From a virus (taxonomy: Duplodnaviria > Heunggongvirae > Uroviricota > Caudoviricetes), in IMG/VR virus record IMGVR_UViG_2778261064_000023: a DNA stretch of 12,643 nucleotides; one strand, written 5' to 3'. The position numbers and the translations under genes are program-made. Of the stretch, positions 2,624-7,937 are shown piece by piece. The notes beneath the pieces are model-generated. The model was not told where the DNA came from. It was given only the letters and a program-made list of their open reading frames with translations, and did not search any database. The stretch's first letter is position 1. Every line of letters starts with the position of its first letter.

Positions 2624-3163
2624 ATGAGAAATCATACCACACACCCGCAAGGGCGGGACTCGCACAACCTGAATAAAGCGGGTATGAAAAACCTGTTGAT
2701 CGCCACTGCCAGCCAGGGCTATGATTTACCCGCACCAGCAAAATCTGGTGCCGGGATTGGCGTCCTGGTATTTAACGAAGCGCACAACACGCGCCCTGCG
2801 TGTTTTTTTGTGCCGGATAGTCACACCTTATCAATGGTGGGCTGTATGGGGGCGGAGCAATCCGCGCCGGGTTCTTCGTTAACCGGTTACGCCAACCCTG
2901 TACAGTCCACCGCCAGCGAAATTGGCGTTTCCTGCGGTGGGTTTATTAAACCTAACGAAGAGGCTGCCAACATGGCTACTACCCCTACCCTTGTACATTC
3001 TCAAATTGCCTTTATCTGGCGCTTTATCATCTTTGGCGCGTCAGAGTCCCAAATCATCCACGTCACCGCCTGGACGGAACGCGAAGCGCGTAACCATTGC
3101 CCGTCAGGTTGTGTCGCTGTATTCGCCGCCCGTATTCGTCAGGGGGTACGCTATGTGCAATAA
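2624..3163 (+). CDS. Hypothetical protein (179 aa), first gene of a four-gene operon upstream of the primase
   Basis: ATG at 2624 preceded by GAGG at a 5-nt spacing; the ORF extends upstream to 2513 but that part overlaps the promoter/operators; stop overlaps the next start. Confidence 0.5.
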
Positions 3164-3383
3164 AAACACGCCGGACGCAGCAGGCGAAGCACTGAAAGTA
3201 CTGATACATGCGCTTGTGGATATAAATTGCATGGTAGAGATCATGGAGAGGAAATCACAGTCGGAGTACGACAAAAGAAAATTTAAAACAATAAAAATAA
3301 TTACCAAAAACTCGCTGACAAAAGCTACAGGCATCCTCAATGAGGACACTAAAAGAATCAGGGAGAAACTGTGTGATGCATAA
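3153..3383 (+). CDS. Hypothetical small protein (76 aa), translationally coupled
   Basis: ATG at 3153 preceded by AGGGGG; overlaps the previous stop (3161-3163) and the next start (3376). Confidence 0.5.
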
Positions 3384-3608: not shown

Positions 3609-3923
3609 ATGAAACAGAAAAATTCTGGCTTTACTGCCAGCGGCCCCGCTCGGCCTGAAATCCGCCCAGGCGATATTTTCAAAGATAAATATGGTGGACG
3701 AATAACGATAAAAACCGTTGACGATTTTCGCGTGACTTATATCCGCGAAGGTTATGCGCATCCCTGCGTGTCGTCTCATATGCGTTTTGAGAGTGAGTTC
3801 ACCCTGGTAAGTAAAGCGCCACCAGCAGAATTAAGCGACATCGACAGAATCATGCGCGTTACAGGAATGGAACGCATTAAGGCAGTACGTGAAATTATTC
3901 GTGAACGGGGAAAGGCAAAATGA
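3609..3923 (+). CDS. Hypothetical protein (104 aa), stop overlaps the primase start (ATGA)
   Basis: ATG at 3609 preceded by GGAGA; stop 3921-3923 overlaps the ATG at 3920. Confidence 0.55.
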   Translation: MKQKNSGFTASGPARPEIRPGDIFKDKYGGRITIKTVDDFRVTYIREGYAHPCVSSHMRFESEFTLVSKAPPAELSDIDRIMRVTGMERIKAVREIIRERGKAK

Positions 3924-6064
3924 AACTGGCACCGAACGTAAAAAAACAGCCTCGCGGAATAAAAAACAAAGACACAGAGGTAATTATTTTCGCGGGTAGT
4001 GATGCCTGGTCGCATGCACAACAGTGGCAGGAGAAGGACGGTCCCGCATCCGGCGATAATGTGCCGCCTGTGTGGCTTGGGCCAAATCAGCTTGCCGAAC
4101 TTGATGCGCTGAAAATTGTTCCGGATGGAAAAAAACGCGTAAGGCTGTACCAGGCCGGAGAACTGGATTTAGTGGAGATCAAAAAGATTGGTCAGAAGCT
4201 GGCGGCGGCAGATATTCAGGATGCGAATTTTTACCCTGAAGGAATGCACGGCCAGAAGTGTGAAAACTGGCGGCGCTATCTGAACGTTGAGCGTCAGAAT
4301 CTTTCTGCAGATCTGGTAATTAAGCTTCCGGTAAAGAAAAAAGCCACTACAAGCCCGGGTGATGATGAATTAAAGCCCCGCGTTGAAAGTCGCGCCGATG
4401 GTGTTTTCTGGGTAACGCCCAAAGTGGATAAGCAGTCAGGAGAAATTATCCGGCCTGAGACGTGGTTATGTTCTCCGCTTGAACTACTGGGAACTGGCAC
4501 GATTGGTAAAGAGCATTACCGCGTGATGCGCTGGAAAAAGCCAGCAAATCATGAAGTCATCACAATGGCGATTCCGTGCGGTGGCATTGGCGACCGTGAC
4601 GGCTGGCGGCTACTGAAAGACCACGGACTGAACGTAACAACCAACGGCAAATACAGGGCTATCCTGGCTGACTGGATGCAGTTAAGCGGAAGCCATGAGG
4701 AATGGCAGTTAAGCACAACAACGGGCTGGCATTTTGGCGCGTACATCATGCCGGACGGTTCGGTCATTGGTGAGTCTGAAAAACCGATTCTGTTTACCGG
4801 AAAAAGTGCCGCTGTTAATGGCTATTCGGTTGCGGGTACGGCGGAGGGCTGGCGCGACTGCGTGGCGCGGCTGGCTGGTGGCAATCCGTCCATGATGCTG
4901 GGTGTTGCCACGTCACTGGCAGCACCTTTGATTGGCCTTGTTGGTGCGGACGGCTTCGGGGTACATCTTTTCGAACAGTCATCGGCAGGGAAAACCACCA
5001 CGCAGAACATCGCATCAAGTTTATGGGGAGAGCCGGACGCACAACGGCTGACCTGGTACGGCACGGCGTTAGGCATCGCCAACGAGGCAGAGGCACACAA
5101 TGACGGGCTTTTACCCCTGGATGAAATAGGCCAGGCCGGAAACGCGCGGGAGGTGTCCACATCGGCTTATACGCTGTTTAACGGTTCCGGGAAATTACAG
5201 GGAGCGAAGGACGGCGGCAACCGGGAGATCAAACACTGGCGAACTGTGGCAATCAGTACCGGAGAAATGGACGTTGAAACATTCCTCAAAACGGAGGGGA
5301 TAAAAGTCAAGGCGGGGCAGCTTGTCCGTCTGCTTAACGTGCCGATGGAAAAAGCCACGCAGTTTCACGAATACAGCACCGGAAAGGCACACGCAGACGC
5401 GTTAAAGGATGCCTGGACAGCAAATCACGGGGCGGCGGGTCGTGAATGGGTTAAATGGCTGGCAGACCACCAGCAGGAGGCAAAGGACACGGTAAGGGCA
5501 TGCCGTGAACGGTGGCGCAACCTGATACCGGAGAGCTACGGCGAGCAGGTACACCGCGTGGGTGAGCGTTTCGCCATACTGGAGGCCGCGCTTGTGCTTT
5601 CCGGTCATGTTACTGGCTGGGATGAGCAGGAATGCCGCGATGCCATTCAGCATAATTTTTATGCCTGGGTGAAGGAATTCGGTACGGGCAACAGGGAACA
5701 CAGGCAGATTATTGAACAGGCTGAGGCGTTTCTTGCGGCCTATGGCCTGAGCAGGTTCGCCCCTGTCAATTATGACCCTGCCAGCCTGCCGATTTCAGAA
5801 CTGTACGGCTACAGGGAAAGCGACGGACGTTATGACGAGCCTGTTTTGTTTTACGTGCTGCCGGAGCCGTTTAGCTCACATGTGGCGAAGGGATTTAACA
5901 AGGATGCCGTAGCAAAGACCCTTCATGAAGCCGGAATGCTGAGAAAACCAGCCTGCGGGCGGGGATGGCAAATCAGGACACCACGACTAAAACACCTGAA
6001 AGGGGCGCGGCTAAGAGTGTATGGCCTTTTGCTGACACAGGACCACGATGCTGAAAATGATTAA
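3920..6064 (+). CDS. Satellite replication protein: primase/helicase (P4 alpha-like / D5-type NTPase) with Walker A motif
   Basis: 714-aa ORF; P-loop GVHLFEQSSAGKTTTQ; size and position (after alpA, before iterons) match PICI pri-rep / P4 alpha; iterons immediately downstream. Confidence 0.8.
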   Translation: MKLAPNVKKQPRGIKNKDTEVIIFAGSDAWSHAQQWQEKDGPASGDNVPPVWLGPNQLAELDALKIVPDGKKRVRLYQAGELDLVEIKKIGQKLAAADIQDANFYPEGMHGQKCENWRRYLNVERQNLSADLVIKLPVKKKATTSPGDDELKPRVESRADGVFWVTPKVDKQSGEIIRPETWLCSPLELLGTGTIGKEHYRVMRWKKPANHEVITMAIPCGGIGDRDGWRLLKDHGLNVTTNGKYRAILADWMQLSGSHEEWQLSTTTGWHFGAYIMPDGSVIGESEKPILFTGKSAAVNGYSVAGTAEGWRDCVARLAGGNPSMMLGVATSLAAPLIGLVGADGFGVHLFEQSSAGKTTTQNIASSLWGEPDAQRLTWYGTALGIANEAEAHNDGLLPLDEIGQAGNAREVSTSAYTLFNGSGKLQGAKDGGNREIKHWRTVAISTGEMDVETFLKTEGIKVKAGQLVRLLNVPMEKATQFHEYSTGKAHADALKDAWTANHGAAGREWVKWLADHQQEAKDTVRACRERWRNLIPESYGEQVHRVGERFAILEAALVLSGHVTGWDEQECRDAIQHNFYAWVKEFGTGNREHRQIIEQAEAFLAAYGLSRFAPVNYDPASLPISELYGYRESDGRYDEPVLFYVLPEPFSSHVAKGFNKDAVAKTLHEAGMLRKPACGRGWQIRTPRLKHLKGARLRVYGLLLTQDHDAEND

Positions 6065-6089
6065 TCTCGCGTGTAGGAGGTAAAAATAT

Positions 6090-6379
6090 GTTGTCCCAGT
6101 CGTCCCAGTAAGCAACAAGCAATCGTAACACATTGAATTACATATATTTCACTTACAAAAAGTGGGACAACAGCGGGACAATATTCAGGCATTTTGGGAC
6201 AACATAGCGGCATTTTGGGACGACACGACATGTATTTTTTACCGTGCTGGAGGGTGGGACAACACAAAAAACCTCATGTCGTCCCAAAATCGCCTTATGT
6301 CGTCCCACTTTGTGGAGTGTGTTTTTAATAAAATCAACAGGTTAACATTAAGTGGGACAACCGGGACAACTGGGACGAC
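6090..6379. repeat. Iteron-type replication origin: at least 11 copies of (T/C)GGGAC(A/G)AC in both orientations, flanked by AT-rich stretches
   Basis: Copies at 6090-6098(-), 6099-6107(-), 6163-6171, 6174-6181, 6195-6203, 6216-6224, 6255-6263, 6278-6286(-), 6299-6307(-), 6353-6361, 6362-6370, 6371-6379; TATATATATA at 6386-6397. Confidence 0.7.
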
Positions 6380-6418
6380 GTGTTTTGTATATATATACGA
6401 AAAATCGAGATCTGAACT

Positions 6419-6661
6419 ATGAAGTTAAACCGCAAACAACCACACTACCGCGCCATTGACCTTACAGAGCACTGGCTGAGGGTGGCGATAAAAATCATCG
6501 ACCGCAACGCGGGAGAAGGATACGCGAAAGCACATCCCGAACTGATAAGCGCATTCATGGCCACGGCGGCGGCAAATTTTGCCACGCTGACAGAGCGGGA
6601 GATTGCCGAAGCGGAACAGGTGACAACCATCAACGTTAAAACCGGAGAGCAGACAGCATGA
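6419..6661 (+). CDS. Hypothetical protein (80 aa) between origin and ssb; stop overlaps ssb start
   Basis: ORF with ATGA overlap to the downstream gene at 6658; no recognisable family. Confidence 0.5.
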   Translation: MKLNRKQPHYRAIDLTEHWLRVAIKIIDRNAGEGYAKAHPELISAFMATAAANFATLTEREIAEAEQVTTINVKTGEQTA

Positions 6662-7116: not shown

Positions 7117-7653
7117 ATGACAACGCTGACCATTAACCGAAAACCGAAAGGCATTTACGGCACGCAGTCAGAAACGACGCAGGCGGCACAGCAGCAGGAT
7201 AAAACCACATCGGCGCATAAAGTGATACCCGGCAATCAGAACGCACAGCAGAGCCGCAAAGGGCAGCCCACAGGGGTGACACCGTGGCGGCATATGACCA
7301 AACGCCAGCGCAAAAACCGCAGACGCGTTAACCGCCTTATTGAGCTGTGGCCTGATTTATTCAGCCGGGAAACACCGAAGCCGCTTAAGGTGGGGATATT
7401 CGACGACCTGATGCAGGATCTCGCCGTCAGGGGGCTGGCATTCGGGCCAGGGGCATTACGTGCGACGCTGGCATCTTATGCGCAGTCTCCGCGCTATTAC
7501 CGCGCCTTAATGGCTGGTGGTGCACGTTACGACCTGAAAGGCCAGCCATGTGGGGAAGTGACACCACAGGAACAGCAGGAGGCAGAAACGCGGCTGGCAG
7601 CACTGAATGAAAAGCGCAAACGTCAGGCGACAAAGGAGAGGACAGGCGCATGA
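7117..7653 (+). CDS. FinO/ProQ-domain RNA chaperone-like protein with Gln-rich N-terminal extension
   Basis: Residues about 60-178 align with the E. coli ProQ N-terminal domain as recalled (PLKVGIFDDL vs PLKIGIFQDL; RYDLKGQPCGEV vs RVDLDGNPCGEL); RBS GGGGAAGG upstream. Confidence 0.7.
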   Translation: MTTLTINRKPKGIYGTQSETTQAAQQQDKTTSAHKVIPGNQNAQQSRKGQPTGVTPWRHMTKRQRKNRRRVNRLIELWPDLFSRETPKPLKVGIFDDLMQDLAVRGLAFGPGALRATLASYAQSPRYYRALMAGGARYDLKGQPCGEVTPQEQQEAETRLAALNEKRKRQATKERTGA

Positions 7654-7937
7654 TTCGTGACAGCAAAGCGGAAGAACTGGAGACTAAAGGCCTGTACCGG
7701 AGAGCGGCGGCGCGGTGGGCTGAGGTCATGCAGCTGGTGAACACCGATAAGGAGCGCGAACAGGTGGCAAAGCGTCGCGCGGAATGCATCCGCAAGGCAG
7801 CACGCCCACCCGTTATGGCGGATAACTTCGGGGCGCTGAAAGAGGCTGTAAACCGCACTCATGCGGTGATGGGGATGGAAGACGCGGGTAAATCCGTCTG
7901 GCGGAACTACCCGAAGCAGCCTGGCAGCAACCAGTGA
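7650..7937 (+). CDS. PerC-family transcriptional regulator
   Basis: 95-aa product starting MIRDSKAEELETKGLYRRAAARWAEV, matching the PerC/Pch N-terminal signature KAEELE.KG.WRRAA.RW; start overlaps the upstream stop (ATGA). Confidence 0.75.
   Translation: MIRDSKAEELETKGLYRRAAARWAEVMQLVNTDKEREQVAKRRAECIRKAARPPVMADNFGALKEAVNRTHAVMGMEDAGKSVWRNYPKQPGSNQ

Follow-up and report, generated by a model that had tools for sequence, protein, structure and literature searches.

A candidate iteron replication origin downstream of a DUF927 Rep gene in a Gram-negative phage-inducible chromosomal island

The 12,643-nt viral sequence IMGVR_UViG_2778261064_000023, here called the window, carries an array of short repeats directly downstream of rep, a gene for a 714-aa protein of the DUF927 family. 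Judged from its sequence, the window is an island of the phage-inducible chromosomal island (PICI) type at a known PICI site. The region from about 6083 to 6400 is very probably the replication origin of this Gram-negative PICI, at which the DUF927 Rep would act after induction and excision of the island. The array is best read as an iteron origin of the type found in PICIs and in the Staphylococcus aureus pathogenicity islands (SaPIs), bound by the C-terminal domain of Rep, with its role in replication assigned by homology and analogy. This reading was chosen because the layout of the repeats is conserved, the repeat motif is recoded among relatives and covaries with the C-terminus of Rep, and that C-terminus has a predicted winged-helix fold, which resembles SaPIbov1 Rep. 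The same evidence strongly supports the iteron origin that had been proposed in a preliminary description of the sequence, but two proposals attached to it there, the designation of Rep as a primase and a distal initiator site, did not hold.

A search of the window with TGGGACAAC, allowing up to one mismatch, yielded 13 matches, 11 of them inside 6090–6379, compared with a chance expectation of 3.1; none of 200 shuffled sequences reached 13. Together with a weaker twelfth copy, CGGGACAAT at 6174–6182 with two mismatches to TGGGACAAC, this bears out the earlier count of at least 11 copies in both orientations. The 12 copies share the consensus YGGGACRAC, in which G2 to C6 and A8 are invariant and which does not recur in the rest of the window. 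The core GGGACRA was also found 12 times, always within the 289 bp from 6091 to 6378 and nowhere else in the 12.6 kb (expected 3.3; largest number in a shuffle 8). The array begins 26 bp past the stop codon of the rep ORF (open reading frame; 3920–6064, plus strand), the stop codon ending at 6064 and the first iteron starting at 6090. The iterons start at 6090 and 6099 in minus orientation, at 6163, 6174, 6195, 6216 and 6255 in plus orientation, at 6278 and 6299 in minus orientation, and at 6353, 6362 and 6371 again in plus orientation. The resulting start-to-start spacings are 9, 64, 11, 21, 21, 39, 23, 21, 54, 9 and 9 bp.

The iterons are arranged around two AT-rich spacers. The left pair, GTTGTCCCA and GTCGTCCCA (6090–6107, minus strand), is abutting and inverted with respect to the main block. 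It is separated by spacer 1 (6108–6162, 55 bp), a candidate melting region, from four direct iterons (6163–6224, plus strand), the last three of which are in 21-bp phase, with T-tracts (ATTTTGGGAC) ahead of them. A single direct iteron (6255–6263, plus strand) and an inverted pair with a distance of 21 bp (6278–6307, minus strand) follow. Spacer 2 (6308–6352, 45 bp) includes a perfect consensus site for the integration host factor (IHF), AATCAACAGGTTA at 6332–6344, and is bordered on its right side by an abutting triple of direct iterons with a 9-bp period (6353–6379, plus strand). Both spacers have a GC content of 29%, compared with 50% for the window, and both are local minima of duplex stability. 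Opposed iteron sets are present around both of them, in the order (- -) / 29% GC / (+ + + +) and again (- -) / 29% GC / (+ + +). Just past the triple lies a TA-rich element, TTTTGTATATATATA (6383–6397), a candidate unwinding element that contains the least stable 20-mer of the origin region; its TTTTG start is also found ahead of the iterons phased at 21 bp, and it might alternatively be a priming site or a promoter. The AT-rich flanking stretches of the preliminary description were recovered as the two spacers and as TATATATATA at 6388–6397. The large inverted repeat noted there was also found, with refined boundaries: it is an imperfect repeat of 34 nt, 6195–6228 versus 6274–6307, with 82% complementarity, and involves the inverted iteron pair. 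No DnaA box (TTWTNCACA, up to one mismatch) was found in 6065–6418, and the number of such boxes in the whole window was at the level expected by chance.

Among 5,426 complete E. coli genomes, 107 contain a match to the origin region, always on the chromosome, and the replicon was found on no plasmid in PLSDB. In none of the matching genomes does RefSeq contain an annotation over this region. A protein-coding function of the region (ORFs 6162–6422, 6061–6267 and others) was considered and rejected, as relatives have indels with lengths not divisible by three, conservation is confined to the iterons, and RefSeq annotates nothing. Two related origins with 82% (L002) and 75% (L003) identity have retained every iteron core and its orientation, whereas the AT-rich spacers have diverged and contain non-triplet indels.

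To cover more distant relatives, a scan with a Rep alignment was performed with one genome per species, which resulted in 43 loci from Escherichia, Citrobacter, Serratia, Erwinia, Pantoea, Pectobacterium, Rahnella, Xenorhabdus, Limnobaculum, Lonepinella, and others. Motifs were identified by de novo k-mer counts in the 450–480 bp past each rep stop codon. Nearly all of the about 40 rep relatives have 6–13 copies, mostly 9–13, of a lineage-specific 8–9-mer downstream of rep. They share the layout (- -) AT-rich (+ + + +)(+)(- -) AT-rich (+ + +) TA-run, with offsets past the rep stop codon of about 27-, 36-, 99+, 110+, 131+, 152+, 190+, 217-, 238-, 290+, 299+ and 308+. At least 10 different motifs occupy these positions (TGGGACAAC, TGGGATAAG, TGAACCAAC, TAACCCAC, TGAACCGAC and TGAGACAAC; TGGGACAAG, TGGGATAAGT, TGAACCAACA, TGAACCACG, TACCCGAC, GACCCGAC, TGAACCCA and TAGGACAAT), and direct and inverted copies have been recoded alike across the lineages. 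The recoding of all sites together within a fixed layout is what would be expected of binding sites for a co-evolving protein.

The degree of conservation differs between the parts of the array. Position and orientation of the left pair, about 27 and 36 bp past the stop codon, are kept in nearly all relatives irrespective of the motif, and the 11/21/21 spacing of the four direct iterons recurs in other iteron classes. The abutting triple is conserved in most classes at about 290, 299 and 308 bp past the stop codon. The center of the array is somewhat more variable: an equivalent of the single direct iteron exists in many relatives of other iteron classes, and the L025, L028 and L031 classes have one central inverted copy, so that the large inverted repeat is not universal. 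Spacer 1 is poorly conserved and contains indels among relatives, while its flanking iterons are invariant. The TA-rich element is conserved independently of the iteron class, and a TTTTG(N)TTATATATA-like motif about 10 bp past the last iteron was detected in 23 of 40 related origins belonging to different classes. Of the 40 origins, 14 have a perfect IHF consensus, about 10 of them at the position of the second spacer; among 202 coding windows of equal size, 2 have one.

A truncated variant was found near yejM/yejO, i.e. L004 of E. coli 042, L005 of ET896, and L007 of E. albertii. In these islands the region equivalent to about 6245–6620 of the window, including the right module and an 80-aa ORF, is gone (the L004 origin extends from 2999 to 3234). 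They have the left module only, all six copies of which read TGGGACAAG, and the wing of their Rep carries the exchange R681E. These islands could be decaying elements or could represent a minimal origin. L004 was also considered as the named PICI EcCI042 of the same strain, and this was rejected, because EcCI042 sits at tqsA and has a RepA-type helicase.

The motif class follows the last 95–100 residues of Rep, roughly, and neither the Rep core nor the N-terminus. In a sliding-window comparison, the identity gap between pairs with the same and pairs with different iterons was 0.24–0.39 in the last 100 residues or so and 0.06–0.18 in the helicase core, as far as residue 590 or so. For pairs matched at a core identity of 0.8–0.9, the C-terminal identity was 0.84 within a class and 0.54 between classes, whereas the middle domain was equal (0.69 and 0.71, respectively). 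Individual pairs behave in the same manner. L013 and L008 have different iterons; their cores are 86% identical, but residues 678–706 only 23%. Conversely, L008 and L015 share the same iteron and are 92% identical at residues 678–706, although their N-termini are unrelated (15%). In L012, the backbone is nearer to the GGGATAAG group, yet the iteron, GGGACAAC, is that of the window, and G658/F659, A663–A665, R681/G682 and R699 are common with the Rep of the window. The class-discriminating positions cluster at 681–706. In summary, at least 10 iteron classes exist, each with its own signature of the Rep C-terminus, i.e. matched Rep-origin specificity groups.

Other candidates for the specificity determinant were rejected. 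The Rep N-terminus is swapped between L008 and L015, which have the same iteron, and it is 68% identical to that of EcCICFT073 despite different iterons. The DUF4222 proteins of L002 and L051 are 83% identical and the single-stranded DNA-binding proteins (SSB) of L003 and L051 94% identical, while the L051 iterons are unrelated in both comparisons. Other rep-ori cassettes are found in sister islands whose DUF4222, SSB and PerC genes are the same. L050 has a D5-type rep (D5_N and Pox_D5 were found) and the iteron CTGTTCACC in an origin at 4046–4322, L051 has a RepA-type helicase and the iteron AAAGTGAG at 3104–3349, and EcCICFT073 (L052) has a D5-type rep and the iteron GGTAGAC in an origin of analogous layout at 6248–6535. 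When the rep type is exchanged, the iterons change too and the flanking genes stay; rep and origin are swapped as a unit among E. coli PICIs.

With Pfam, the only domain detected in Rep was DUF927 (residues 171–438, E 5e-47). A phmmer search against the PDB matched the SaPIbov1 Rep (8tch, E 6e-14) and the SCCmec Cch protein (5dgk, E 1.5e-3). The full-length AlphaFold2 model, built from 18 sequences, was poor (mean confidence score, pLDDT, 58) and was used solely for a coarse Foldseek comparison, in which 5dgk and 8tch came first with E values of about 1e-6 each. Based on these homologies, Rep appears to be an MCM-like AAA+ self-loading helicase-initiator related to SaPIbov1 Rep and SCCmec Cch. 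The C-terminus was modeled as a winged helix (predicted origin-binding domain, residues 613–704 approximately, 5756–6031, plus strand), and its best structural match was the C-terminal part of SaPIbov1 Rep. The identities in the structural alignments were just about 11–18%, and a C-terminal profile found no match among PDB sequences, so that the match was obtained by fold comparison alone. The covarying residues map onto the putative recognition helix of the model (residues 661–670, nt 5900–5929, plus strand) and onto its wing (residues 681–704, nt 5960–6031, plus strand).

The preliminary description had placed the repeats directly downstream of a primase/helicase gene. The position was confirmed, and the relatives of solved structure, SaPIbov1 Rep and Cch, are helicases; the primase was not supported. 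No Toprim, Prim-Pol, zinc-ribbon or D5_N match was found in Rep or in its N-terminus, and residues 1–160 matched no known primase family, no Pfam domain and no PDB entry. The upstream neighbor of rep is a DUF4222 gene, without a separate pri gene. The term primase for Rep is thus a database label ("Pri-Rep" or "DNA primase") and not a finding, and residues 1–160 may harbor a cryptic primase. This N-terminal part (about 160 residues, 3920–4400) was modeled confidently as an alpha/beta domain (pLDDT 80–93). It is 68% identical to the N-termini of the D5-type Pri-Rep of EcCICFT073 (L052, 4493–4980) and of the L050 protein, the remainder of these proteins being unrelated. It is also the most variable part among the close DUF927 relatives (24–70% identity), in the manner of a shuffled module.

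The following course of events is proposed. After induction and excision of the island, Rep would act at about 6083–6400 and bind the 12 YGGGACRAC iterons via its C-terminal winged helix, using the recognition helix (around 661–670) and the wing (around 681–704). The opposed iteron sets on both sides of an AT-rich spacer would position Rep hexamers head-to-head. Melting would then take place in the AT-rich spacer and/or in the conserved TA-run, with DNA bending by IHF at 6332–6344 possibly helping, and the helicase would load without DnaA or DnaC. We infer binding, melting, helicase loading and replication from the homology to SaPI Rep and from the analogy to the pri-rep-ori region of EcCICFT073. 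The presence of two modules in tandem might serve the loading of two helicase pairs, or the modules might represent an origin and an enhancer like ori and crr of P4. A more far-reaching interpretation, which we regard as tentative and somewhat less likely to be right than wrong, is that a single scaffold of about 12 sites in two modules, with a class-independent TTTTGNTTATATATA element and often an IHF site, underlies the whole family, and that its iteron has been rewritten at least 10 times, each time matched by a few residues of the recognition helix and wing. Examples would be R681E, which goes along with C-to-G at iteron position 9, and G658/F659, R681/G682 and R699, which go along with GGGACAAC versus GGGATAAG.

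Several observations do not fit easily with the assignment as a Rep-bound origin. The validated E. coli PICI origin, that of EcCICFT073, is used by an unrelated helicase body (D5_N/DUF5906/Pox_D5), and the full-length model of the DUF927 Rep has the low confidence mentioned above. DNA of lower stability than the AT-rich spacers exists elsewhere in the window. The yejM-type islands, e.g. in strain 042, retain the left module alone, which questions the need for the right module. The covariation statistics ignore phylogeny, although several independent contrasts agree nonetheless. Furthermore, the inverted iterons fold strongly in single-stranded form, with predicted energies far below those of shuffled sequences (z -4.0 for the DNA 6150–6320, z -6.9 for the RNA 6065–6418), and thus a structural role of the DNA or of the transcript is possible. 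If this were their main function, the inverted repeats would be an RNA element in the rep-ssb transcript, a cruciform or a single-strand hairpin and not protein sites, and the arms of the inverted repeat indeed change together across lineages. However, direct copies cannot pair with one another and have been recoded like the inverted ones, the large inverted repeat is missing from the classes with one central inverted copy, Rfam gave no match in the origin region, and the motif class tracks a predicted DNA-binding winged helix. A purely structural function of the repeats is therefore very improbable.

Plasmid iteron initiators commonly autoregulate via inverted repeats, and the array could in principle serve above all as an operator or regulatory region in the transcription of the 80-aa ORF, ssb, proQ and perC, at which Rep or another island protein controls read-through or a promoter in the TA-run. 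In line with this, the iteron triple abuts a conserved TATATA-containing element 22–30 bp upstream of the next ATG. However, a scan of 6065–6418 revealed no promoter- or terminator-like site above chance, and 12 sites distributed over 290 bp, helically phased and interrupted by two AT-rich spacers, are the layout of an origin and not of an operator. In addition, the homologous SaPI arrays are origins (PMC9371898, PMC7581432). A predominantly regulatory function is thus unlikely, but a regulatory role could exist alongside origin function. The repeats might also bind another protein of the island or of the helper phage, for packaging, partition or recombination, and merely lie beside rep. The island has terS-like genes and a cos-like segment and so must hold other cis-acting sites, but the cos/terS homology is at 9750–10260 and 10990–11250 and not at the array. 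Moreover, the motif shows no covariation with DUF4222 or SSB, and in islands with an unrelated rep type the iterons have changed with rep while the flanking genes stayed. Recognition by a protein other than Rep has hardly any probability in our estimation, and the Rep-bound iteron origin is preferred.

The design itself is known from SaPI and E. coli PICI origins, of which the array of the window is an ordinary example. PICI origins lie directly downstream of the initiator gene and have two iteron sets flanking an AT-rich region; for EcCICFT073, intact pri-rep-ori constructs were compared with rep- or ori-site-mutated constructs in a plasmid-maintenance test, and the rep mutant gave no colonies (PMC6092414). 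The window shares with EcCICFT073 (Fillol-Salom et al. 2018, PMC6092414) the island plan int, alpA, DUF4222, rep, origin, ssb and perC, all in one direction, the origin directly downstream of rep, composed of iteron sets on both sides of AT-rich DNA and including two abutting inverted copies just past the stop codon, and the first 160 or so Rep residues. The two systems differ in the helicase, which comprises D5_N, DUF5906 and Pox_D5 (SF3-type) in EcCICFT073 and DUF927 (MCM-like) in the window, and in the iteron, which is GGTAGAC and GGGACRAC, respectively. A DUF927 rep was present in none of four named PICIs that were checked: those of CFT073, IHE3034 and ATCC 25922 are D5-type, and EcCI042 is of the RepA-helicase type.

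The SaPI Reps are self-loading helicase-initiators with a C-terminal winged helix that recognizes 6–12 iterons directly downstream of rep, and SaPI origins have an AT-rich center with opposed iterons on both sides (PMC9371898, PMC7581432). The window has in common with this system (SaPIbov1 Rep, PDB 8tch; PMC9371898; Ubeda 2007, as far as it is reported in PMC7581432) the homologous Rep, a number of iterons, 12, that falls within the SaPI range, the opposed sets and the AT-rich center. It differs in the Gram-negative host, in an iteron of 9 bp compared with 5–6 bp in SaPIs, in two tandem iteron/AT modules plus a TA-run that is independent of the iteron class, and in an additional N-terminal domain of about 150 residues; an associated primase, either as a separate upstream pri gene or as a fused domain, was not found. 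SCCmec Cch (PDB 5dgk) is also a DUF927 helicase, but the cassette chromosome is another type of element, and the origin binding examined in PMC7581432 was that of the unrelated Cch2 helicase and not of the DUF927 Cch.

Two further systems are similar in their general principle. In iteron plasmids such as pSC101, R6K, RK2, F and P1, multiple phased initiator sites are also located next to an AT-rich region, with a consensus IHF site inside the origin. The window differs in that its initiator is a DUF927 AAA+ helicase and not a Rep_3/RepA winged-helix dimer, in that its origin lacks DnaA boxes, and in its absence from PLSDB plasmids. The satellite phage P4 replicates independently of DnaA, its multi-domain initiator alpha binding octamer iterons through a C-terminal winged helix; the iterons form two clusters, ori and crr, which lie kilobases apart. 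In the window, by contrast, the modules are adjacent, Rep has no D5_N, Pox_D5 or primase domains, and the iteron is GGGACRAC. P4-type TGTTCACC iterons were seen only in the sister island L050 with its D5-type rep, the CTGTTCACC of which we take to be the P4 type I motif.

DUF927 proteins have already been counted among the "primases" of Gram-negative PICIs (PMC10111431). In the literature searched, DUF927 and iterons occurred together only in a paper on SCCmec, no description of a scaffold with recoded iterons was found for the DUF927 Rep type, and a search by motif string retrieved unrelated primer sequences only. The present result provides an annotation for the cis-acting origin that goes with a widespread but so far unstudied type of rep in phage satellites of Gram-negative bacteria; its practical value is modest. 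The part that is possibly worth a short note is the family-wide picture, in which one scaffold of about 12 sites goes along with at least 10 recodings of the iteron and with corresponding wing residues; if true, the rep-ori cassettes would form a natural set orthogonal to one another, and a code of protein-DNA recognition could be read from them. The cassettes seem to behave as modules that can be swapped among islands with common integrases and cargo, such as the perC virulence regulators. Matched iteron and wing variants could explain the compatibility of co-resident satellites, and the cassettes could be used as orthogonal replicons for engineered PICI "drones".

The preliminary description had also suggested that the initiator acts as a regulator at a palindrome at 12241–12259, next to a copy of TGGGACA. 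This proposal was discarded. The TGGGACA at 12245–12251 is a single 7-mer, compared with 1.6 expected by chance, and it lacks the RAC half, i.e. the 3′ half, of the iteron motif (TGGGACAGT). It belongs to a 30-bp imperfect palindrome, TTATTGTGGGACAGTACTGTCATACAATAA at 12238–12267, between a divergent 96-aa ORF (11936–12226, minus strand) and a PerC-like gene (from 12272). The palindrome is identical letter for letter in L050 and L051, the rep genes and iterons of which are unrelated. Its conservation across unrelated rep/iteron cassettes assigns it to the PerC cargo module and not to the replication system, and it probably is an operator of that module.

The window represents a chromosomal island, an identical copy of which is present in E. 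coli P393-F10 between cspD/yljB and clpS, and Table S1 of PMC6092414 includes cspD-clpS among the attC sites of PICIs. The gene content matches that of PICIs: int, an alpA-like gene and the rep module are oriented in one direction next to a PICI att site, phage structural or lysis genes are absent, and the packaging genes are terS-like only. The genes ahead of rep encode a tyrosine integrase (1–1239), an AlpA-like excisionase/regulator, Ash/Icd-like proteins, and the DUF4222 protein. Directly past the origin, an 80-aa ORF (phrog_1231, 6419–6661) overlaps the start codon of the SSB gene; in L003 the 80-aa ORF has given way to an unrelated one, and the truncated islands lack it. The SSB gene is followed by cargo, i.e. 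a ProQ/FinO-family gene and two genes for PerC-family activators, which are regulators of the pathogenicity island LEE (locus of enterocyte effacement; 7117–7653, 7650–7937 and 12272–12643).

Further downstream are a DUF1441/terS-like ORF (8229–8777) and an ORF for a Nu1-like small terminase (9483–10067, minus strand), which adjoins a segment with 75% identity to the cos/Nu1 region of phage 21. A second segment, within 10988–11252, is 88–90% identical to the genome ends of the phages cdtI, Tritos and HannyBb. The terS-like genes and cos-like segments (8229–8777, 9483–10259 and 10988–11252) probably constitute the packaging-hijack module of the island. Upstream of or overlapping the Ash/Icd-like ORFs, Rfam matches on the plus strand at 2719–2917 to isrK (80 bits), to C4 antisense RNA (75 bits) and to the c4 a1/b1 target (44.5 bits, gathering score 46.7) identify, by sequence similarity, an immunity RNA of the P1 c4/P4 CI type. 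Matches of the isrK/C4 type have been reported for Gram-negative PICIs (PMC10111431).

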